Below are positions 46,226-58,281 of a stretch of 64,000 nt of DNA, in pieces; positions within the stretch are counted from its first letter, which is position 1, and each line of letters opens with the position of its first letter. Position numbers and translations under genes: made by a program. The notes under the pieces are model-generated. The model saw nothing but the letters and a program-made list of their open reading frames with translations. It was not told where the DNA came from and did no database searches. This stretch comes from Desulfatiglandales bacterium (lineage in GTDB: Bacteria > Desulfobacterota > DSM-4660 > Desulfatiglandales > Desulfatiglandaceae): the NCBI GenBank assembly GCA_963662465.1, contig OY759599.1, forward strand, positions 1,984,001-2,048,000. The letters are read 5' to 3'.

Positions 46226-48148
46226 ATGCGATTTAATTCAAAAAAAATCAATATCTGGCTATGGACGATTTTTTCTTCGATCCTGTTGTTTGGAGGTTGC
46301 ACCACCGATAGCCTTCAACAAAAAACCGCATCCAACCCTTTGTCAGGCAATGCCCCTTCCGCCGGGATGACCCTCCCAAACCCATCCGCCGCGCATGAAC
46401 CGGCCGCGAGTCAGCCGGCCGTTTACGGCAGCCCGGAAGATACCGCTCGTCATTTTCCGGAAATGGACGCCAGGAATGAAGCGCCTATTCCCAATGAAAA
46501 CGGCGAGAACATAAGGTCATTTCCCAATTCAAACACAGAGCAGAAGTCCGACCAGGAACTGCTGGATTCAGCAATGGAATTCTGTAATGCTTCCAATGAT
46601 TTCTGGGAGGAGGGAGACCTTGAAAATGCCATCGATGCCTTAGACCAGTCCTATACCATTATATTGAAAATAGACCCCAACAAATCTTCGGAAATGGTAC
46701 AACAGATAGATGATTTGCGGTTCACCATTTCCCAGCGAATCCTGCAAATCTATTCATCCCGGTTTACCGTGGTCAACGGCTATCACAAGGCCATTCCCCT
46801 AGACATGAATCCCCATGTGGAAAAGGCTCTGAATATGTATAAGGGGCGTTACAGGGATGCCTTTTTGGCCGCCTACCGTCGATCCGGACAATACCGCCCC
46901 TTTATTGTGAAACGCCTTAAAGAAGCCGGTCTTCCCGAAGAACTTTCCTGGTTGCCCCTCATTGAAAGCGGCTTTAAAGTCAGAGCGCTTTCACGGGCGC
47001 GGGCACTGGGGATGTGGCAATTTATCGCCTCCACCGGTTACAAATATGGTCTGAATCGGGGCCGCTGGGTCGATGAAAGAATGGACCCGGAAAAATCCAC
47101 CGAAGCTGCCATCGGCTATCTGAAAGAACTGCATCAGATTTTCGGCGACTGGGAAACGGTCCTTGCCGCTTACAACTGCGGGGAAGGTCGGGTACTCAGG
47201 ATTATTAACTCACAAAAAATCAACTATCTGGACCATTTTTGGGATCTTTACGCAAGGCTTCCCTCCGAGACGGCTTTTTATGTACCCAAGTTCCTTGCAG
47301 TGCTGCACATCATCAATGATCCAAAAGCACACGGTTTTGTACTTCCACCCGTGGACATGCCTCAACAGGAAACGGAAATCGTCACCATCGATAAACAAAT
47401 CTCCCTCAAATCCATAGCGGAGGGCGTTGTCGTTTCAACTGAAGTTTTGCACCAGCTGAATCCATCTCTCAAACGCCGCACGACCCCTCCCCGCCCCTAC
47501 GATTTGAGGGTTCCCAAAGGCAAAGGGGAAATGCTTCTGGCCAATCTGAATCAGATGCCGGAGTGGTGTCCTCCGCCGGTTCAGACCGCATATACGGACA
47601 GCACACTTAAACATAGAGTCAAAAAAGGTGAAACGCTCTCAACCATCGGTCGCAGATACGGCGCCGGCGTGAAGTCGATCATGCGTGCCAACCATTTGAA
47701 AAGCAGTCGATACCTCAAAGTGGGATGGACCCTCAAAATTCCCGTCAAGAAAAGACATGCTTCCACCCGGAAACCGACGGCAACAACCATTTCGCCAAAA
47801 AATGGCAATCCGGCAACATGCCCACCCGTCCCCCGCACTTATGCGGTTCAGAAGGGGGATTCACTTTGGAATATCGCCAACCGCTTCAAGACTACCACCA
47901 AGGCTATCCAAACCGCAAACCGGATGTCCTCCCCCGCCTTGAATATCGGTCAGGTCCTTAAAATCCCCGGCGCTTCTACCACCAGCGGCAGCGTCAAAAC
48001 AGATCCCTACAGGGTCTTGAAAGGGGATTCCCCCTATATCATCGCTCAAAAACACCAGATGGATCTCTCTATCCTGCTGCGATTGAACCAGCTAACACCG
48101 AGAAGCACCATTTTCCCCGGACAGACACTTCTGGTTCAGGCGAAATAA
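46226..48148 (+). CDS. mltD: Membrane-bound lytic murein transglycosylase D-like lipoprotein with LysM repeats
   Basis: Lipobox LFGGC, IESG, GMWQF, AAYNCG and three clear C-terminal LysM domains. Confidence 0.9.
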   Translation: MRFNSKKINIWLWTIFSSILLFGGCTTDSLQQKTASNPLSGNAPSAGMTLPNPSAAHEPAASQPAVYGSPEDTARHFPEMDARNEAPIPNENGENIRSFPNSNTEQKSDQELLDSAMEFCNASNDFWEEGDLENAIDALDQSYTIILKIDPNKSSEMVQQIDDLRFTISQRILQIYSSRFTVVNGYHKAIPLDMNPHVEKALNMYKGRYRDAFLAAYRRSGQYRPFIVKRLKEAGLPEELSWLPLIESGFKVRALSRARALGMWQFIASTGYKYGLNRGRWVDERMDPEKSTEAAIGYLKELHQIFGDWETVLAAYNCGEGRVLRIINSQKINYLDHFWDLYARLPSETAFYVPKFLAVLHIINDPKAHGFVLPPVDMPQQETEIVTIDKQISLKSIAEGVVVSTEVLHQLNPSLKRRTTPPRPYDLRVPKGKGEMLLANLNQMPEWCPPPVQTAYTDSTLKHRVKKGETLSTIGRRYGAGVKSIMRANHLKSSRYLKVGWTLKIPVKKRHASTRKPTATTISPKNGNPATCPPVPRTYAVQKGDSLWNIANRFKTTTKAIQTANRMSSPALNIGQVLKIPGASTTSGSVKTDPYRVLKGDSPYIIAQKHQMDLSILLRLNQLTPRSTIFPGQTLLVQAK

Positions 48149-49407
48149 AGACCTTTCCACAGATCCCAGAACTCGGGGAAAGACTTGTTAACGCAGGCGC
48201 GATTCCGAATGCGGACGCCCGGAACTCTTAACCCCACCACCGCCAGGCTCATGGCCAGGCGATGATCGTCATGGGGGTCTACCTCGGCGTCGCAAAGCCT
48301 TTCACCGCCATGGACGACGAGATAATCCTCGAACTCTTCCACCCTGCCCCCCAATTTTCGCCACTCCCGGGTCACGGCATCCAATCTGTCGCTTTCCTTG
48401 AAACGGAGATGCCCCACATTTCGAATGGTGGTATTACCTTCGGCAAAAAGAGCCACTGCCGCCAGGGTAGGCACCATGTCCGGCATGCCCCCCATATCCA
48501 CATCAAGCCCTTTTAAGGAACCACCCGTAACCGATACCCGGTCCGGTTCCTTAACCACGGTGCATCCCATGGCCTCAAGGACCTCCAGCAATCGGATGTC
48601 CCCCTGCCGACCCTCGGGATGGATATTTCCGGTGGTCACCGTTCTCCCGGTAATGGCCGCGGCTGCCCAGAAGTAGGATGCGGACGATACGTCCCCTTGA
48701 ACCGTGTAGTCTCTCGACACATAGCTTTGTCCGGCGGGAACCCTGAATTTAGCGTAACCTTCCCGTTCCACCCTGACGCCGAAGGCCGCCATCACATCGA
48801 TGGTCACATCCACATAGGGCCGGGACACCAGCACCCCCTCTACCCTAATCTCCACATCTTTCCGGGCGTAAGGCCCTGACAGCAACAACGCCGAAAGAAA
48901 CTGACTGCTGGCATCCCCCGGCAAAACCACCGCACCCCCTGAAATGCCATCTGAAGCGATGCGAATGGGCGGGCAACCATTGTTTTCCATGCAGGAAACA
49001 TCGGCGCCCAGTTGACGGAGGGCATCCACCAGCGGCCCCATGGGCCGCTCCCGCATACGGGGGGTTCCGGTCATGAGATATGTTCCCTTTGCCAGGGCCA
49101 GAACGGGCACCAGAAGCCTAAAAGAAGTTCCGGAATTACCTAAATAAACCGCTTTTTCCCAAGGCTGGAAACTGACCTTTTCACCAATCCCCTCCATGAC
49201 CAAATGATTGCCATTGCGCTTCATTTGAACGCCCATGGCCTTCAAAGCCCGGGCCGTGTGACGGGTGTCATCGCATTGCAGATCATTTTTAAGGATGGTT
49301 TTTCCACCGGCCAGACCTCCGGCAATGAGCGCCCGATGGGTGATGCTTTTTGATCCTGGAATGGTCACTACATCATCATCCCCTGAAAAAATTTTTATTG
49401 TGTTCAT
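48136..49407 (-). CDS. aroA: 3-phosphoshikimate 1-carboxyvinyltransferase
   Basis: PGSKSITHR, GNSGTSFR, SSQF, RFKESDR and DHR. Confidence 0.96.
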   Translation of the reverse strand: MNTIKIFSGDDDVVTIPGSKSITHRALIAGGLAGGKTILKNDLQCDDTRHTARALKAMGVQMKRNGNHLVMEGIGEKVSFQPWEKAVYLGNSGTSFRLLVPVLALAKGTYLMTGTPRMRERPMGPLVDALRQLGADVSCMENNGCPPIRIASDGISGGAVVLPGDASSQFLSALLLSGPYARKDVEIRVEGVLVSRPYVDVTIDVMAAFGVRVEREGYAKFRVPAGQSYVSRDYTVQGDVSSASYFWAAAAITGRTVTTGNIHPEGRQGDIRLLEVLEAMGCTVVKEPDRVSVTGGSLKGLDVDMGGMPDMVPTLAAVALFAEGNTTIRNVGHLRFKESDRLDAVTREWRKLGGRVEEFEDYLVVHGGERLCDAEVDPHDDHRLAMSLAVVGLRVPGVRIRNRACVNKSFPEFWDLWKGLYFA

Positions 49408-49425: not shown

Positions 49426-50232
49426 TCAAAGGTACATTTTGACCGCGGCCCGCATGACATCCACGGGGGGATTCAAGTCGGTCCACAAGCGAAACTGTTC
49501 CGCCCCCTGATGGATAAACATTTCCAGTCCGTTGATGACGGTGCATCCGCGAGCGCGGGCGTTTTTCAGCAGGCGGGTTTCAAGGGGATTATAAATGGCA
49601 TCCATTACCACCATTGTCTCCTGAAACACATGGTCCGGCACAGGGGAGGCATTGGTATGGGGAAACATGCCCACCGGCGTTGTCTGAATCAATACATTCG
49701 CCGGTATCTCATGGATTCTCTCCAGGGGAATAAAAGGACATACCAAAAAATCCGCAAGGATCCGACCGCGATCCTCGGACCGGTTGGCAACCACCAGTTT
49801 CATCCCCCTTTCCCGGGCCATAAACCCGATGCCCCGGGCCGCGCCGCCGGCGCCCACCAGAACGCACCGTTTTCCCGCGAGATCGATTTTCGCTTCGAGA
49901 GCCTTCATGGCCCCCAGACCATCGGTATTGTATCCTTTCAACCGGCCTTCCACATTCACAATGGTGTTGACGGCGCCGATTTGTTCCGCTAGTGGGTCCA
50001 GCTCATCCAGATATTGAATGACCGACGTCTTGAAGGGAATGGTGACGCTCATGCCCTTGATGCCCAGTGCCCGCATACCGCGAATGCTCCCCTCGGGATC
50101 CGATGATTCAAAGGCCCCATAGAGCGCGTTAACCCCCGAAGCCTTGAATGCCGCGTTGTGCATAACCGGGCTGAGGGAATGGCCAATAGGATTTCCCAGC
50201 ACCCCGTAAATTTTCGCAAGCCGGATTTTCAT
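49426..50232 (-). CDS. aroE: Shikimate dehydrogenase
   Basis: HSLSP, VTIPFK, AVNT, NTDG and GAGGAAR. ATGA overlap with the aroD stop. Confidence 0.95.
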   Translation of the reverse strand: MKIRLAKIYGVLGNPIGHSLSPVMHNAAFKASGVNALYGAFESSDPEGSIRGMRALGIKGMSVTIPFKTSVIQYLDELDPLAEQIGAVNTIVNVEGRLKGYNTDGLGAMKALEAKIDLAGKRCVLVGAGGAARGIGFMARERGMKLVVANRSEDRGRILADFLVCPFIPLERIHEIPANVLIQTTPVGMFPHTNASPVPDHVFQETMVVMDAIYNPLETRLLKNARARGCTVINGLEMFIHQGAEQFRLWTDLNPPVDVMRAAVKMYL

Positions 50233-50897
50233 TGGGAAAAAACCTCCAGTATCATCTTCATCTCTTTCACCGTCATCTGGCCGGAAGCGGACTTCTGTTC
50301 TCTTGTGAGGGAAGCAAAGGTGAAAGCCCCACCCAGAAGAGGGCAGACGACCCGGCTGATGCGGCCCAGGGGACCCATGCACAGAGCAACAATCTCAACG
50401 CCCATCTTTTCAGCCAAAGGGATCAATCCCAACACGGTCAGGTTATCCGCCGGGGTCCGGGCGTGGGTAACGATCTTCACCACATCCGCTCCCGTATCGG
50501 CCATTTTTCGGAACAAATCAGACAGTGTCTCCTTTGAAGGGGTTCCATCGGGAAAGTGTTTTGACAGGATCAGCCTGGAATGATTCCGTTCCTCAAATAA
50601 CAGCCGTCGATGTTCCAGGGGAATGGCATATTCAATATCCACAAAATCCGCTCCCACTCTTACGGCTTCCCTGAGATAAGCCACGCAGGCGCCATGGGGA
50701 ACACAACCGCCCCCCCCCTCTTTTTTGGATCGATAGGTCATGATCACCGGTTTGGAAGCTGCCGTTATGATCTTATCCAAATTAAAGGCTTCCATAACAT
50801 CCAACCGGACTTCCATGAGGTCGCCGGAAATTGACGCTTCCGCCATTTTCCGAAGCGCATCGGACGTATCCCGGGCCATAATGGGGATACAAATCAT
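50229..50897 (-). CDS. aroD: Type I 3-dehydroquinate dehydratase
   Basis: EVRLD, TYR..EGG, SKH, VVKIV, MG..G.ISR and SASGQ. Confidence 0.92.
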   Translation of the reverse strand: MICIPIMARDTSDALRKMAEASISGDLMEVRLDVMEAFNLDKIITAASKPVIMTYRSKKEGGGGCVPHGACVAYLREAVRVGADFVDIEYAIPLEHRRLLFEERNHSRLILSKHFPDGTPSKETLSDLFRKMADTGADVVKIVTHARTPADNLTVLGLIPLAEKMGVEIVALCMGPLGRISRVVCPLLGGAFTFASLTREQKSASGQMTVKEMKMILEVFSQ

Positions 50898-52780
50898 GAT
50901 ATTACCTGAACGGAATCTTTTAATTCGTGAGAAAGGCGTTTCGAAAAGGACACATGAAAAGTGATGCCCCTTTCGGCGTCGGGACTCACCCATACACTGC
51001 CCTGATGCCGCTGTGCAATCTCTTTGACGATAGCCAACCCCAACCCTGTTCCCTGAATACCCTCGGCGTCCTTTCGACGCATGAACAGACCAAAAATTTT
51101 CTTGGCGTCTTCCGACCCTACCCCGATACCATTGTCCCTGACGGAAAGGATATGGTGTTCGTCCGTTTCTTCATATCCAATGTTAATTTCACTTAAGCCC
51201 TTCCCACCGTATTTTAAGGCATTATCCACGAGATTTCTGAACATCCGGACCAGACTTACCCTGTCCCCATGAATAAGGGGTACGCGTTTGGGTTCGCGCC
51301 AGCTTATCTTCCGCCGACCCAAAACATCGGAAAACTCCCGGCGGATACTCTGAAGAACCATTTTCACGTCGATGGGTTGAATGTTTAAAGGGGATTCCTT
51401 GGCCGAGATGTAAACATTGATATCGTCGAGGAGCGCCACCATCTGCTCGCAGGCCCCAGCAATATATCGGCAGTACCGTCGGCCTCTTTCATCGAGTACA
51501 TCCCCATAGTTTTCCTGAAGCCGTTTGGCAAAGCCGTAACTGCTGATGGCCGGGCTTTTAAGGTCGTGAGAGATCGAATAAGCAAACAGTTTGATTTTTT
51601 CCGAACTTTCGTTCACAGCCTCCTCCATCTGCTTGCGGTCCGTAATATCAAGAATCAGGGCTTGCTTGGACAGGGTCCCATCCTCATGATAAATGGGCGT
51701 GTTGACGATATAGTACCAGCGGGAATCCTTGGGACTCAGGACTTCCCACCGAACGGTCTCTCCCTTAAAAACGCGATCGTTGACGCACCAGGGGCATATG
51801 GTATCCAAATCATGAAGGGCCTTGTAACACAATTCTCCCGTTGCATCGCGACCGGTTCTCTCCATCAGACGCCGGTTCATGAATTCCACCCGGTAATCCT
51901 GGGAGCAAATATAGATGAGTCCGTCAAAAGCCTCCACCATGGCCCGATAATGGGCCTCCCGCTCCCGCAGGGCCTTCTCTGCCCTGTTTTGCTGAGTAAC
52001 ATCTCGAATAATGCCCTGATACCCTGAAATGCCGCTATGGCCATCCTCCCCCGCCGTTGCCGTCAGCAGGCACTGCATTTCGACGCCGTCTTTCTTTCGT
52101 AACGCAATTTCATAGTCTTTAACGGAATGAGTCCTCTCCATCCGTTCCAGAAGCAACTCCCGATCCCCGGGGTCAACATACATCTCCCGCACATTGACCT
52201 TGCCGACCATCTCGTCTTTGGTATACCCAAAAAGCGTTAACATGGCCGGGTTTGCATCCAGGCATTCGCCTTCGCGGCTTGTGATATAAATGGCATCTCC
52301 GGAATCGTTAAAAAGCCGGCGGTATCTCCCTTCACTTTTCAACAATGCATGTTCCGTCCGTTTCTGCGCGGTCACATCTTTTGCAACCCCTTGAATGGCA
52401 TAAGGTTGTTTTCCATTCCGGTAAATGACGGCGGCATCGGTCTCCACATCCACATACTGCCCGTCTTTTCTCCTCAGCCGGTATGTGGAAAGCTTGGATG
52501 AACCCGTTTCCAGAAGGTGTTCCACGGCCTTAAAGGCACAAGGAAGTTGATCTTCGCTCAACAGGGCTGTGAAATTCAAGGAGCTGAGCTCATCCCTTTG
52601 ATATCCCAACAGTTTCAAGGCTGCATCATTGGCGTCCAGAAACCAGCCTTCCAGGTCATGAAGATATACGCAATAGGTGGAACGATTAAAAAGAGCTGCA
52701 TACCGTGCTTCTATATCATGGATTCCACTTTCCATTCGTTTGCGCTCCAATTTAGGATCTATTTTGTTAGCTGTCGGCAA
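50894..52780 (-). CDS. Cytoplasmic multi-PAS sensor histidine kinase
   Basis: Three PAS/PAC domains, SISHDLKSP, NLVDNALKY, DNGIG and GTGLGL. No TM helix. Confidence 0.92.
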   Translation of the reverse strand: MPTANKIDPKLERKRMESGIHDIEARYAALFNRSTYCVYLHDLEGWFLDANDAALKLLGYQRDELSSLNFTALLSEDQLPCAFKAVEHLLETGSSKLSTYRLRRKDGQYVDVETDAAVIYRNGKQPYAIQGVAKDVTAQKRTEHALLKSEGRYRRLFNDSGDAIYITSREGECLDANPAMLTLFGYTKDEMVGKVNVREMYVDPGDRELLLERMERTHSVKDYEIALRKKDGVEMQCLLTATAGEDGHSGISGYQGIIRDVTQQNRAEKALREREAHYRAMVEAFDGLIYICSQDYRVEFMNRRLMERTGRDATGELCYKALHDLDTICPWCVNDRVFKGETVRWEVLSPKDSRWYYIVNTPIYHEDGTLSKQALILDITDRKQMEEAVNESSEKIKLFAYSISHDLKSPAISSYGFAKRLQENYGDVLDERGRRYCRYIAGACEQMVALLDDINVYISAKESPLNIQPIDVKMVLQSIRREFSDVLGRRKISWREPKRVPLIHGDRVSLVRMFRNLVDNALKYGGKGLSEINIGYEETDEHHILSVRDNGIGVGSEDAKKIFGLFMRRKDAEGIQGTGLGLAIVKEIAQRHQGSVWVSPDAERGITFHVSFSKRLSHELKDSVQVIS

Positions 52781-52802: not shown

Positions 52803-53942
52803 TCATGATATATCACCTGATGGATAAGATCCCAACCATTTTATAAACACGCACAGATCTTTCATCTCAGCCAGGGCATCGGCCAGGGTAGGATCATTGC
52901 GGTGTCCTTCAAGATCCACAAAAAACAGGTATTCCCAGGAGCGCATACGCATGGGTCTGGATTCGATGCGGCAAACGTTAATGTCTCTTTTTGCCATGGC
53001 TGACAGCACCTCGGCCAAAGCGCCCGGACGATGGCCCAGAAAAAATAACAGGGTGGTTTTGTCGCATCCGGTGGGTTGGGGCTCACTGTTTCCCAACACC
53101 AGGAAACGGGTCACATTATGGGGCTCGTCTTCGATATCTTCACTGAGAAGCTGGAGCCCCAGGGTTTCCGCCAGAAAACGGCTGCCCAGAGCAGCGCCAT
53201 TCGGATCATCGGATGCCATTTTGCCCGCAAGGGACGTGCTTTCCACCGACTCAAAGGGAACCTCCGGCAGATGGCTTTTGAGCCATGAACGGCACTGGGC
53301 CAACGGCATGGGATGGGAATAAAGTCTTCTGATGTGTTTCAGGTCTTTATTCCGGGCCATCAAACTGAGCCTGATCCGGTGGTAATACTCTCCACATATT
53401 TTCAGATCAAATTTGTTAAACAGATCCCAGATCCCGGAAACTGAGCCTTCCAGAGAATTTTCCACCGGAATCACACCCTGATGACAGTGCCCCTTTTCCA
53501 CGGACCCGAAAACATCTTCAAAGGTCCGGGACGGACAGAATTCAGCGGAACTGCCGAAAATGGAAATGGCGGCCTGGTGCGAAAAAGTTGCCTCGGGACC
53601 CAGGAAACCGACCTTCAACGGCCCTTGAACCGCCCGACCGGCGGAAATGATCCGGCCAAAAATATCCCGGATCGCATCCGGCGTAAGACGTCCGCGGTTA
53701 TTTGCAGCCATCCGGTCAAGGATCTCTTTTTCGCGCACGGGATCAAAAACCGCCATCCCCAGTTTTTCCTTGATCCGTCCGATGGCGGCGGCCGCGTCAA
53801 GCCGCTCCCCCAAAAGCGACAGTATTCCGGCGTCAATCGAGTCGATATCCCGACGCCGACAGCCCAGCTCCCGCCAATCGGCATTTTCATCCTTTTCGGA
53901 CGGCATTCCTGTTGTTTCTTCTGTTTTCATGTCCATATCCAC
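52803..53942 (-). CDS. pheA: Chorismate mutase/prephenate dehydratase
   Basis: RRDIDSID chorismate mutase domain, LGPEATFS, ENSLEG, TRF and IESRP (ACT domain). Confidence 0.95.
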   Translation of the reverse strand: MDMDMKTEETTGMPSEKDENADWRELGCRRRDIDSIDAGILSLLGERLDAAAAIGRIKEKLGMAVFDPVREKEILDRMAANNRGRLTPDAIRDIFGRIISAGRAVQGPLKVGFLGPEATFSHQAAISIFGSSAEFCPSRTFEDVFGSVEKGHCHQGVIPVENSLEGSVSGIWDLFNKFDLKICGEYYHRIRLSLMARNKDLKHIRRLYSHPMPLAQCRSWLKSHLPEVPFESVESTSLAGKMASDDPNGAALGSRFLAETLGLQLLSEDIEDEPHNVTRFLVLGNSEPQPTGCDKTTLLFFLGHRPGALAEVLSAMAKRDINVCRIESRPMRMRSWEYLFFVDLEGHRNDPTLADALAEMKDLCVFIKWLGSYPSGDIS

Positions 53943-53980
53943 CCTTTAATTCACGCAAACCCTTGACGCCCCACTTCCTC

Positions 53981-55048
53981 TCAAATCCCCAGATCCTGCC
54001 CACCGGCTCTGGCCCGCAAATAATGATCCGCCAGAACCAGCGCCACCATAGCTTCAACCACCGGCACAATGCGGGCAACCGCCGTCACGTCAAATCTGCC
54101 GGTCAATTCCAGGGTCGCGTCCCGACCCTGCCGATCAATGGTTTCCTGGGGCTTCATGATGGAAGGAATGGGTTTCACCGCTACCCGAAGCACCAGTTCA
54201 TCGCCGTTGGAGATACCCCCAAGGATGCCGCCGGACCTGTTGGAAGCAAAACCCGTGGAACGGATGGGGTCATTGTTTTCAGAACCCTTGAGACGGGCCG
54301 CCTCAAACCCCGCGCCCACCTCAACCCCTTTTACGGCGCCAATAGACATGAGAGCTTTAGCCAGCTCCGCATCCAGCTTGTCGAACACGGGTTCCCCCAA
54401 TCCGGCGGGACAACCGGATACGCAGACTTCCACCACACCACCGAGACTGTCTCCGTCTTCCCTGGCCCTTTCGAGTGCCGCCAACATGGGTTCCACCGCA
54501 TCCGGGTCGGCACAATAGAGAGGATTCCGGGAAATAACGCCCGGGTCCATCCGTTCAGCTCGAATCCCCCCCAACGCCAGGGTATAGGCAAGAATGCGCA
54601 TATGGAAGGGCGCCAACACTTTCCGTGCCACCACCCCGCAGGCCACCCGAGCGGCGGTTTCCCGGGCGGAAGCCCGACCCCCTCCCCGGTAATCCAGATG
54701 ACCAAATTTCTTGAAGTAGGTGTAATCCGCATGCCCCGGCCTGAACAGGTCCTTCAGTACCCCGTAAGGTTTGCTTTTGACGTCATGGTTTCCCACCAGC
54801 AGGGTTAACGAGGTTCCGGTAGTGCGCCCTTCAAAAACGCCGGACATGATTTCCACCCGGTCTTCTTCCGCCCTGGGCGTCTCAAAAGAAGACCGCCCCG
54901 GCCTGCGCCGTTCCATCTCCCCTATGAAGTCAGCGTCCGTAAGGCGAATCCCTGAAGGACACCCGTCGATAATGGCCCCCAGGGCTTTTCCGTGGGATTC
55001 GCCAAATGTGGTGATTTTAAATGCCTGTCCAAATGAATTTCCGGCCAT
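53981..55048 (-). CDS. aroC: Chorismate synthase
   Basis: GESHG, RPGHAD, RASARET and GGILGGISNG. Confidence 0.97.
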   Translation of the reverse strand: MAGNSFGQAFKITTFGESHGKALGAIIDGCPSGIRLTDADFIGEMERRRPGRSSFETPRAEEDRVEIMSGVFEGRTTGTSLTLLVGNHDVKSKPYGVLKDLFRPGHADYTYFKKFGHLDYRGGGRASARETAARVACGVVARKVLAPFHMRILAYTLALGGIRAERMDPGVISRNPLYCADPDAVEPMLAALERAREDGDSLGGVVEVCVSGCPAGLGEPVFDKLDAELAKALMSIGAVKGVEVGAGFEAARLKGSENNDPIRSTGFASNRSGGILGGISNGDELVLRVAVKPIPSIMKPQETIDRQGRDATLELTGRFDVTAVARIVPVVEAMVALVLADHYLRARAGGQDLGI

Positions 55049-55062
55049 GAGATCCTCTCCGG

Positions 55063-55644
55063 TTATGAGTTTAATGCCGCCGTGCTGACAGTCCCCTGTG
55101 GTTGTCCGCTATCCCGTATGGGCATAACCGGCTCAGGCATGGATTGTATGATTTCGTATGCCACCGCCTCGGGGGATTGCTCATCCGTATTCACAACATA
55201 ATGGCAGGCCCGTTCATAAAGGGGGGCTCTCTCACTCAGGAGCTGTCCGATCTCAGCCATCGGGTTTTCCCCGACCAATCCCGGTCGAATTCTGCCCGAG
55301 TTCTCATCTTGGGTCATCCGATCCCGAATGGTCGATATGCTCGTCCGCAACCAAACGAGCCAGCCCGTTTTTTTTAAATTCCGCACATTTTCCCAATCCA
55401 GCACCGCACCGCCACCGGTGGAAATAACCCGTTGATCATCATTTGAAATGGATCGAATGATAATTTTCTCCAGCATTCGAAAGGCATCCCAGCCGTTTTC
55501 GGCCACATAATGGGGAATGGTGGACCCAACTCGCCTCTCCAAAAGCTGATCCGTATCCACCAGTTCCAACCCCAGATGATTCGCCAGGGTTTTCCCCACC
55601 ACACTTTTTCCGCTGCACCGATACCCGATTAAAACAATATTCAT
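55063..55644 (-). CDS. aroK: Shikimate kinase
   Basis: GYRCSGKS, DTD, FR..E, STGGG and RP.L. Confidence 0.93.
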   Translation of the reverse strand: MNIVLIGYRCSGKSVVGKTLANHLGLELVDTDQLLERRVGSTIPHYVAENGWDAFRMLEKIIIRSISNDDQRVISTGGGAVLDWENVRNLKKTGWLVWLRTSISTIRDRMTQDENSGRIRPGLVGENPMAEIGQLLSERAPLYERACHYVVNTDEQSPEAVAYEIIQSMPEPVMPIRDSGQPQGTVSTAALNS

Positions 55645-55666: not shown

Positions 55667-55707
55667 AAAAAAAAGCCGCGGAAGCTTTTGAAGGCATCCA
55701 CGGCTTT
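55667..55707 (-). terminator. Intrinsic terminator of the aro leader (attenuator)
   Basis: Minus strand AAAGCCGTGGATGC-loop-GCTTCCGCGGC-T8, ending 22 nt before the aroK ATG. Confidence 0.85.
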
Positions 55708-55730
55708 GAAAAATGACAAAAAACAGCATC

Positions 55731-55796
55731 TCAGACCATGGATGGACCTCCAAAATAATAATAATAAAAGCCCTGCCACGATCGATTCGTAAACAT
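55731..55796 (-). CDS. Aromatic amino acid attenuator leader peptide MFTNRSWQGFYYYYFGGPSMV
   Basis: 21-codon ORF containing TTT-TAT-TAT-TAT-TAT-TTT, AAGGA upstream and a terminator directly downstream. Confidence 0.85.
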   Translation of the reverse strand: MFTNRSWQGFYYYYFGGPSMV

Positions 55797-55839
55797 TATT
55801 TCGCTGTTTCCTTTTGTCCAAGTTAAAGAATGAGAAGCA

Positions 55840-56462
55840 GTCAATGACCACCACCAAAGGTGGTGGCTTGAATTAATGCACCTGGAAGGTGCATGGTACC
55901 TATTCTATTTGAACAATTTACCTTGCGTCACATCGGCATCTTTATCTTTACTATGCTGCCATTTTACATACTTTTTGATCCGCTCTTCATTTAAGCCTAC
56001 CGTACTCACACAATAGCCTCTCGACCACACATGTTGTCCCCAGTATTTTTTTCGTAGTTGAGGAAAACGGTCAAATAGTTGTAGAGCCAGTTTCCCCTTC
56101 AAGAACCCCATGAACTGCGATATGGCGTATTTCGGAGGGATTGATACGACCAGGCGAACATGGTCAATTTGCACATTACCTTCCACCACTTCTACGTCAT
56201 CTTTTTGATTACATAACCGATATATCTGTTGCATCACATATTTTGCCACTTCTTCCTGCAATATTTTGTAGCGATATTTCGGGCAAAACACCACATGGTA
56301 CTTACACTCATACAAAGAATGTGCTAATTTCTTGAATTGACGTTGACGAGTCATTATATGCCTCCTGTTAGTTTCGCACCTTCCAGGAAGACATATAATA
56401 CTCGTCATATTCAATACACCGGTAGAACCTTTTTTTATTCCACTACCAGAGGTAGTGGTTTA
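55840..56462 (-). mobile_element. IS200/IS605-family element (tnpA only)
   Basis: Subterminal hairpins ACCACCACC-AAA-GGTGGTGG and CCACTACC-AGA-GGTAGTGG flanking tnpA. Ends are approximate. Confidence 0.85.
55905..56354 (-). CDS. tnpA: IS200 Y1 transposase with an altered HUH motif
   Basis: CKYHVVFCPKYR, DHVRLVVSIPP, LKGK, WSRGY and YV..Q. Confidence 0.9.
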   Translation of the reverse strand: MTRQRQFKKLAHSLYECKYHVVFCPKYRYKILQEEVAKYVMQQIYRLCNQKDDVEVVEGNVQIDHVRLVVSIPPKYAISQFMGFLKGKLALQLFDRFPQLRKKYWGQHVWSRGYCVSTVGLNEERIKKYVKWQHSKDKDADVTQGKLFK

Positions 56463-56468
56463 CTTTTT

Positions 56469-56497
56469 AATAAAAATCATTTGGGATCTTTTGTCAA
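56469..56497 (-). promoter_or_regulatory. Probable native sigma70 promoter of the aro leader
   Basis: TTGACA at 56497-56492 followed by an AT-rich -10-like region, wedged between IS200 and ISL3. Confidence 0.4.
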
Positions 56498-56614
56498 GAA
56501 GAAAAGGCTCAACGCGGATTAACGTGAAAAAATGTTTCGCCTGTCATTTTTTTGAGAACTTTCTCCCCCAATAGGTATAAATAGGATGGAAAAAGCTCAT
56601 TAGGAGGATTTTCC

Positions 56615-57924
56615 ATGAAACTGCTACCCCGTTTTACATCCTATATAAAGGATGCTGCGAAGTCCGTGAAGCGAATTACCCTGCAAGAATTCAAAGAAGT
56701 TGCGGATGAAACTCTGACCGAATTGTTGGGCATTGCAAGCATCGGGGTAAAGATGTTTGCACTTCGTCGCGAAGGAGAACACGAAGTTCTGCACTTTGGT
56801 GTACCCATCGCGAGGAGGTTGCCTTGTGTCCACATTGCGGCTCACTTTCAACGAAAATTCATCAAGAAGAAACTCGATCTATTCGTCATTTGGATGTGTG
56901 GGGCAAAAAGACTGTCCTACATTTTCTTTCTCGCCGTTTCAAATGCGAAGATTGTGGTCGGACTTTTGTAGAAGAATTGCCCTTCGTAGATTCCCACCGC
57001 AGGCAATCCATAACCTTCGAACAGCATATTTATCAGGCCTGTCTTACAAGCACCCGCAAGGCTGTTGCAGTTCATGAAGGGCTAAGCCACTCTACAGTAA
57101 AAGATATCTTCAACTTTTGGGCGGCAATGAAACGGATATCTACGGCCACCTATCCTGTCAGGGGCTTAGGAATTGATGAGCTTTCCATCAAAAAGCGTCA
57201 CAAGCAATTCGTACTCGTGATCTCTGATATTGATAGGAAATGCATACTCGCTATCCTGCCTGACAGGGAGAAAAAAACCCTGGAAAATTGGATAGAAGCC
57301 TTGAGTCCTATGGAGAAAAAATCTATCCGTTTTGTTTCCATTGACATGTGGGCGCCCTATGATCAAGCAGCCCGCAGCAAGCTGCCCCATGCGAAGGTGG
57401 TAGTTGACCGATTCCATGTCATGAAACAATTGAATACGCGCCTGACCCAGCTGCGCACAAAATATCAGAAAGAAAGCTCTGATGAAATGAAAAAACTACT
57501 CAAAGGCAGCCGCTGGATACTTGTACGCAATCGGGCTGAACTGTCACCAAAGGAGACGGAACATCTGGATAACATACTGAAAACATGCCCTGATCTTCGC
57601 GCCTTGTACCTGCTTAAAGAAGAATTCCGCACCATATTCGAGAAAATCCATTGCAGAGAAAAAGCAGCCCGTTTTTTGGACGCATGGGTTCTAAAAGCAA
57701 AACGAACAGGCAACAAATACCTGCTCAAATTTGTTGCTACATTCAAAAACTGGAGAAAGGAGATCCTCAATTATTTTACCGAACGAATCACAAATGGTTT
57801 TGTCGAGGGGCTCAATAATGGACTGAGGACGATGATACGCTCGGCTTACGGTTACAGGAATTTTGCAAACTTCAGGCTTCGGGCGCTCGCACAATTCGCG
57901 GGTTTTCGCGTTACTCCGCGATAA
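56615..57924 (+). pseudogene. ISL3 transposase with a frameshift near 56795
   Basis: AGGAGG + ATG at 56615. The frame switches before CPHCG...RRFKC..C, GIDE, IDMW, DRFH and TNGFVEG.N. Confidence 0.85.
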
Positions 57925-58132
57925 GTCAAAAAAGTCAACAGTTTAAAAGAGCTCATAATAACAAGCGCCTAAGTAAATCAAGTCAACAAGGTAAGCGCCT
58001 GAACCTTGATGATGCCGGCAGCATGAATAAAAAATCAAGTCATCAAGTCAATCAAGGTTCATACAAATGAGAAACTGTCCTGCCTTGCGTCGGTAGCCAT
58101 CTTGTATTAGCTCTTCATTGCCTTATCCCAGT

Positions 58133-58178
58133 GGACGCAGAGCGTCCAAAGCGCATTCTCACGCAGAGTGTAGGAATA
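58133..58178. repeat. REP-like double palindrome inside the ISL3 3' region
   Basis: GGACGC-AGA-GCGTCC ... GCATTCTCACGCAGAGTGTAGGAAT. Confidence 0.55.
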
Positions 58179-58281
58179 CGCGGAGCTTTTGACATCTGAC
58201 ATCTTTGGTTCGAAATATCGATTTTTCACGTTAATCCGCGATGAGCCGAAGAAAATTGAATTCTCTCATGAAAAGGAATGA

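Follow-up and report, generated by a model that had tools for sequence, protein, structure and literature searches.

A leader of an uncatalogued family, very probably an attenuator of textbook kind, in front of the aroK operon of a Desulfatiglandales bacterium, with an insertion sequence between it and its predicted promoter

The window analyzed here is a 64,000-nucleotide stretch of DNA from a Desulfatiglandales bacterium, whose 8.16 Mb genome is called the source genome below. The minus strand of the window carries an operon with genes of aromatic amino acid synthesis, listed here from aroK downstream together with the basis of each assignment.

55063..55644, minus strand: aroK, shikimate kinase (best NCBIfam matches are shikimate kinases, E 4e-40, under the curated cut-offs)
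53981..55048, minus strand: aroC, chorismate synthase (profile match over the cut-off)
52803..53942, minus strand: pheA, chorismate mutase/prephenate dehydratase (profile match)
50894..52780, minus strand: PAS-domain histidine kinase, not a conserved operon member (profile match and comparison of relatives)
50229..50993, minus strand: aroD, type I dehydroquinase (TIGR01093 over the cut-off)
49426..50382, minus strand: aroE, shikimate dehydrogenase (profile match)
48136..49407, minus strand: aroA, EPSP synthase (profile match)

Previously these genes were described as a whole shikimate operon, which overstates their content: DAHP synthase, aroB and tyrA are encoded elsewhere in the genome, and the operon is not the entire pathway because the missing steps sit behind their own copies of the attenuator analyzed below. 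A histidine kinase gene is found within the aro operon in only one of the stretches from 13 relatives, that of the closest relative (some contigs end early), and was on this count rejected as a conserved operon partner. Five of the 13 relatives have a second terminator of the same type 3' of aroC, followed by an aldolase gene in the four where the contig continues, and in G003 and G010 this gene is an ADH synthase. Close relatives carry the internal attenuator, ADH synthase and DHQ synthase II in the operon, and the source genome has a separate aroF-aroB operon instead; its aroC-pheA gap is only 39 bp (window 53942-53981), without internal attenuator or ADH synthase there, and a search of the source genome for DHQ synthase II gave no match. 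In G010 (L044 9350-9600) the leader of the internal attenuator between aroC and ADH synthase, as read by eye, runs into the terminator without an in-frame stop codon, possibly the result of a slip in the T run.

The element in front of aroK consists of the following parts.

55809..55813, minus strand: candidate Shine-Dalgarno sequence AAGGA, 12 nt 5' of the leader ATG (assigned from sequence, putative function)
55731..55796, minus strand: leader ORF MFTNRSWQGFYYYYFGGPSMV (reading frame conserved)
55752..55778, minus strand: predicted control codons W7 to F15 (WQGFYYYYF), at which stalling of the ribosome is predicted to leave region 2 free
55765..55782, minus strand: region 1, 5' arm of the candidate 1:2 protector or pause helix (fold)
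55735..55752, minus strand: region 2, partner of region 1 or region 3 (fold, covariation)
55689..55707, minus strand: region 3, which forms the terminator's 5' arm and loop side and also the 3' arm of the antiterminator (fold, covariation)
55672..55682, minus strand: region 4, 3' arm of the terminator (10 unbroken pairs in 26 homologues)
55667..55674, minus strand: U8 tract of the predicted intrinsic terminator (sequence)

Most of this had been read correctly in a preliminary description. The 21-codon ORF (55796-55731) translates exactly as claimed, with eight aromatic residues out of 21; the hairpin (55707-55672) is followed by a T8 tract (55674-55667), which ends 22 nt before the ATG of aroK (55644); and CATCCATGG (55744-55736) can indeed pair with CCGTGGATG (55703-55695). 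The calculated energy of the 3:4 terminator hairpin is -20.2 kcal/mol, and the complete 2:3 antiterminator fold extends beyond the CATCCATGG/CCGTGGATG pairing and reaches -24.7 kcal/mol. Overlooked at that stage was a candidate 1:2 protector helix, where 55782-55765 pairs with 55752-55735 at -18.0 kcal/mol. The 12-nt spacing of the candidate Shine-Dalgarno sequence is long, which we count against the attenuator reading. The hairpin was absent from the output of a generic terminator scan of the window, probably because of the stem and loop limits of the scan. When the genome was searched with a loose filter (a short ORF with at least 5 F/Y/W in 10 codons, a hairpin of -12 kcal/mol or lower, and T6), 16 places passed, only three of which had at least seven aromatic residues, namely the aroK leader and the leaders of both DAHP synthases. 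An aromatic leader with hairpin and T-run before aroK exceeds chance.

For quantification of how well the element is kept, the upstream regions of aroK were compared among relatives, as the preliminary description had proposed. An aroK match was present in 40 of 61 genomes, and at 28 of the 38 loci examined from these 40 genomes both an aromatic-rich leader and a terminator were found 5' of the gene. The leader was absent at nine loci, three of which come from family f4 and have another gene abutting aroK, one offers just 650 bp of flank, and four are weak, possibly paralogous aroK matches. At one of the 38 loci (L021, genome G018) the RNA is kept and a single aromatic codon is left. Together with L178 (G100) from the same genus it retains the RNA helices with the aromatic codons almost lost, and a strong leader is found before the aldolase gene elsewhere.

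A pattern of leader plus terminator, which fixes the aromatic codons and carries no gene information, was found 31 times among 185,579 genomes, under titles such as Desulfatiglandales, Desulfobacteraceae and Deltaproteobacteria; 30 of these places lie directly 5' of aroK, and the remaining one stops at a contig edge. A covariance model built from 26 leaders matched in 80 of 101 genomes of the order (E<=0.01) and in 44 of 151 genomes of the phylum (E<=0.001), with the caveat that homologous leaders are kin and not independent observations. In the window all Rfam families stayed below their gathering scores, and the aroK leader gave no Rfam hit even at E<=5. All hits at that level were sub-threshold, the source genome's copy before trpE scoring 23.3 against Rfam Trp_leader with its gathering score of 41. 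A T-box or riboswitch was rejected, as there was no Rfam match. Judged from these comparisons, the leaders appear to form an uncatalogued, multi-copy family that spans the phylum.

Covariation was analyzed in the 26 homologues. None of the 10 terminator pairs is broken and four of them show two-sided changes; RNAalifold alone gave just the terminator. The antiterminator has 85.6% of its cells paired and five of 12 pairs changed on both sides, a level of covariation reached by none of 500 shuffles, and controls with a slid partner were 30-47% paired. This bears out the mutually exclusive antiterminator that had been proposed from the single sequence. Because a single shift in genus g1 accounts for a large part of this two-sided change, a duplex test was made on a wider set of 143 leaders (116 distinct region-3 sequences, 23 from outside the order). 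The mean duplex energy of region 3 was -17.05 kcal/mol with its own partner, compared with -14.29 kcal/mol for region 2 of another leader and -9.26 kcal/mol for shuffled sequence, and the own region 2 was better than the median in 89 of 116 cases. The candidate 1:2 protector is 81.6% paired, and its covariation was equalled in 53 of 500 shuffles, i.e. it does not rise above them; the helix is a weakly supported candidate.

The position of the ribosome was then considered in two folding models. When the nascent RNA is cut before region 4, 2:3 forms with a ribosome upstream in all 26 homologues and is blocked once the ribosome has come within five to seven codons of the stop codon. In this model 172 of 177 aromatic codons lie inside the permissive zone, a figure that is partly built in because the zone is everything upstream of region 2. 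For the leader in the window, the predicted outcome is antitermination as long as the A site is at codons 5-11 (footprint of about 12 nt) or 6-13 (footprint of 6 nt), and termination further on. In the full-length equilibrium model the antiterminator wins at the best codon in at most 14 of the 26 homologues (the frames of three rows being mis-set), and at no codon in the closest relative, L002. This equilibrium result speaks against the model, as does the protector helix, which outcompetes 2:3 in just nine of 26 homologues when the nascent RNA is untranslated; we thus infer that the switch is kinetic, i.e. co-transcriptional. The alternative structures expected by the preliminary description are recovered in the nascent RNA and only partly at equilibrium.

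The element has a short ORF whose codon run specifies end products of the pathway, an intrinsic terminator between leader and first gene (from sequence, fold and covariation), and a mutually exclusive antiterminator that overlaps the 3' end of the ORF; in the models, stalling at the control codons frees region 2 and finishing the leader covers it. As far as sequence and models can tell, it thereby shows these defining features of an attenuator. We consider it highly probable that the conserved leader ORF and the competing helices before aroK-aroC-pheA-aroD-aroE-aroA act as a ribosome-mediated transcription attenuator that answers a shortage of charged Phe-tRNA, Tyr-tRNA and probably Trp-tRNA. 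The ribosome-mediated logic had been proposed before, and the conserved leader and the covarying antiterminator support it. With plentiful charged tRNAs the ribosome would pass codon 16 or so onto region 2, and with region 2 covered the 3:4 terminator would form and transcription would stop at the U8 tract near 55667. A ribosome stalled at W7-Y14 would instead let 2:3 pair ahead of the synthesis of region 4, so that the polymerase would enter aroK.

Whether the switch is still connected in this particular strain depends on a region that escaped the preliminary description.

56492..56497, minus strand: predicted -35 box TTGACA of the operon's native promoter, beyond the insertion sequence as seen from the leader (the flank aligns with the uninterrupted promoter region of L002)
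56469..56474, minus strand: predicted -10 box TTTATT after a 17-nt spacer (T at the first base of the box in 29 of 31 loci; putative assignment)
55839..56468, minus strand: IS200/IS605-type element, about 630 bp long with an ambiguity of one T at its ends (three other full-length copies, about 99% identity)
55905..56414, minus strand: tnpA of this element, on the operon's strand (NCBIfam NF033573, 139.5 bits against a cut-off of 55)

At 28 of 31 homologous loci TTGACA occurs 78-94 nt 5' of the WQ motif, with a T-rich -10-like box 17 nt further on, which places a putative promoter directly upstream of the leader; in the source genome the insertion sequence lies between the two. It sits directly behind the predicted -10 box and is absent there in L002, and all four full copies in the source genome sit after TTTTATT. 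A contig of run X4, which may stem from the source sample, reaches from aroK 27 bases into the end of the element. No contig of the RNA runs X1 and X2 covers the leader, a result without bearing on its expression. An empty-site allele was not seen, as no contig of X1, X2, X4 or X6 joins across the element (contigs drop rare variants). An ISL3 element (window approximately 56506-58200), with its transposase split in the window, ends about 9 bp 5' of the -35 box; at 56793 the contigs of X1, X2, X4 and X6 have one extra base in it, reflecting another copy or an assembly slip.

Because the insertion sequence lies between the -10 box and the leader, the switch may malfunction here, and transcription would now have to start upstream of or inside the element. 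That the switch is genuine in the lineage and has been disconnected or retuned in this strain, the native start site having been removed by the insertion, is a real possibility towards which we do not lean, and it is compatible with an attenuator origin. The position of the insertion behind the -10 box speaks for it, as do the ISL3 end so close to the -35 box and the right end of the element, which offers TTGACT without a good -10 behind it; a hybrid promoter from this end was rejected, there being no -10 at a usable spacing. On the other side, both native boxes are intact and would read through tnpA on the same strand, the left hairpin of the element resembles a terminator on the opposite strand only, and the leader, the Shine-Dalgarno sequence and the helices are undamaged. 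A promoter-like site with nine of 12 matches lies inside the element (55931-55902), such sites being at chance level (two found, 2.7 expected). Read-through from the native promoter across tnpA appears plausible from the sequence, and that the switch still works in this strain we hold to be somewhat probable. The insertion is a natural experiment on whether attenuation persists when the 5' end is 630 nt longer.

With regard to the amino acid that the attenuator senses, 121 hits of the covariance model in the order (a subset, plus those of the source genome) were classed by downstream gene; 115 were anchored for counting and six dropped. In a fixed window of the aroK class (49 leaders), 266 of 441 codons were F/Y/W, compared with 97 in each other frame and 96.8 +- 7.1 in base shuffles, a contrast that is inflated by choosing the most aromatic of the three frames. 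Start and stop codons are present in 48 of 50 aroK leaders, and the synonymous codons TTC and TAC occur among their aromatic codons. On average the run holds 2.52 Phe, 2.10 Tyr and 0.80 Trp. There is more Phe than Tyr in 24 of the 50 leaders and more Tyr than Phe in 19.

The preliminary description held that the element senses mainly Tyr-tRNA, a reading we find doubtful and which the family does not support. It is true that the leader in the window has four consecutive Tyr codons, three or four of which fall within the predicted antitermination zone at the 6-nt footprint; at the 12-nt footprint, however, Y11 alone does so. YYYY occurs in one of 50 aroK leaders, the one in the window, and several have no Tyr at all (FFFFFF). 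Moreover, tyrA lies outside the aroK operon, and a Phe-Tyr-Phe leader in C. glutamicum answers Phe, not Tyr, limitation, as outlined in PMC11802643. Since the closest relative reads FYFYYF and the averages are mixed, "mainly Tyr" fits at most this strain, where Tyr may weigh most, the run being Tyr-heavy. By their codons, the aroK leaders as a family appear to be mixed Phe/Tyr/Trp sensors and not Tyr-specific.

In TnaC the nascent peptide arrests the ribosome in response to a free amino acid. A comparable arrest here, on a free aromatic amino acid or a pathway metabolite and not via uncharged tRNA, would agree with the WQ and the G(L/P)PM tail that recur in many leaders. These codons double, however, as RNA regions 1 and 2; in L012 and L030 region 2 is read in a different frame and the tail differs, with the RNA helix retained; and it is the codon run, not the tail, that changes with the regulated gene. 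We regard such an arrest as very improbable. A constitutive terminator of an upstream transcript next to a chance T/A-rich ORF can practically be dismissed, for although (TAT)4 is a simple repeat and the equilibrium fold is the terminator in 25 of 26 untranslated RNAs, the promoter, frame, start and stop are conserved, the antiterminator covaries and all but one of the 31 pattern hits lie before aroK.

An attenuator answering aromatic tRNAs has well-known counterparts. In the account of PMC11802643, with the mechanism treated in PMC1183508, attenuators are described for pheL-pheA, trpL-trpEDCBA and the pheST leader of E. coli, and the latter source presents classical attenuation as a kinetic switch. 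As far as these accounts go, the E. coli leaders share the four-region logic of control codons, antiterminator and intrinsic terminator with the element studied here, but have single-amino-acid runs on terminal branches. Nor is a leader in control of the common pathway new, going by the published descriptions: the aroR-aroF system of C. glutamicum (Neshat et al. 2014, as reported in PMC11802643), the one mentioned above, has a Phe/Tyr leader before common shikimate genes with read-through on stalling, and the uORFC-13-1 motif upstream of aroF in Acholeplasma (PMC8632094, 24 representatives) is a predicted uORF with Phe codons and a terminator ahead of the shikimate pathway. The former, as there described, is actinobacterial and has Phe-Tyr-Phe only, before aroF, whereas here a longer W/F/Y run precedes aroK and several copies occur per genome; it is the sister copies, not the aroK copy, that precede DAHP synthases. 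The Acholeplasma motif, by its description, comes from a different phylum and has Phe only. In PMC2659441, aroF of Shewanella carries the label "Attenuator sensing tyr-tRNA", with reference to an E. coli paper of 1980. The principle is a textbook one with precedent on the common pathway, and the switch in the window is very probably a textbook kind from an uncatalogued family, with an insertion sequence between it and its predicted promoter.

No publication on such a leader family in Desulfobacterota or deltaproteobacteria was found among the papers searched; a large attenuation survey (Lopatovskaya et al. 2010, cited in PMC4833913) reportedly covers deltaproteobacteria and may contain an earlier prediction.

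The covariance model gave six hits in the source genome, corresponding to five loci, as one hit is the reverse strand of a hairpin.

Window, minus strand: aroK leader, run WQGFYYYYF
C1:3650932-3651078 (L082, L196): before a protein of 854 aa with MBL fold, run FFYFRF
C1:3252198-3252349: before aroF-aroB-aminotransferase-tyrA, Tyr-rich run FLYYWYYFY
C1:4299460-4299620: before the second DAHP synthase, Trp-rich run FWWWRWF
C1:1624752-1624907: before trpE, Trp run WWW

A second GC hairpin follows each of the last three attenuators. In the order and phylum the leader also precedes aroC, pheA, ADH synthase, trpE and trpD-like genes, as well as an aminotransferase, ABC binding proteins and a dehydratase subunit, and 19 of the 121 classified hits in the order precede the MBL-fold gene. 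The codon run follows the gene, with Trp before trpE and trpD-like genes, Phe-rich runs before pheA and Tyr-rich runs before the aroF-aroB-tyrA operon. A search for TrpR gave no match in the source genome. These runs would fit a single RNA chassis (region 2 and the GCCGTGG terminator) that has been duplicated across the phylum and re-coded with other Phe/Tyr/Trp runs into an entire regulon for aromatic amino acids that does without TrpR and in which RNA-level control of separate DAHP synthases is tuned to Trp and to Tyr, with the codon run labelling orphan genes; we see the chances of this proposal as even. If it is true, a link to the supply of aromatic amino acids follows for the 854-aa MBL-fold protein, a class I/II aminotransferase, a 2-hydroxyacyl-CoA dehydratase subunit and ABC binding proteins. 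The leaders would provide a testable account of how anaerobic bacteria of the Desulfobacterota type tune aromatic amino acid synthesis where, as in the source genome, TrpR is not found; their alignment is an Rfam-ready family, and the control codons point to uncharacterised genes of aromatic supply.

Two minor observations concern the wider set of leaders. Pure Tyr runs occur in L146, L147 and L207, before a 2-hydroxyacyl-CoA dehydratase-like gene (G049, G121) and another gene (G123). Tandem pairs of attenuators, 150-500 bp apart before a single gene, are present in L122, L148, L175, L182, L207 and L209.
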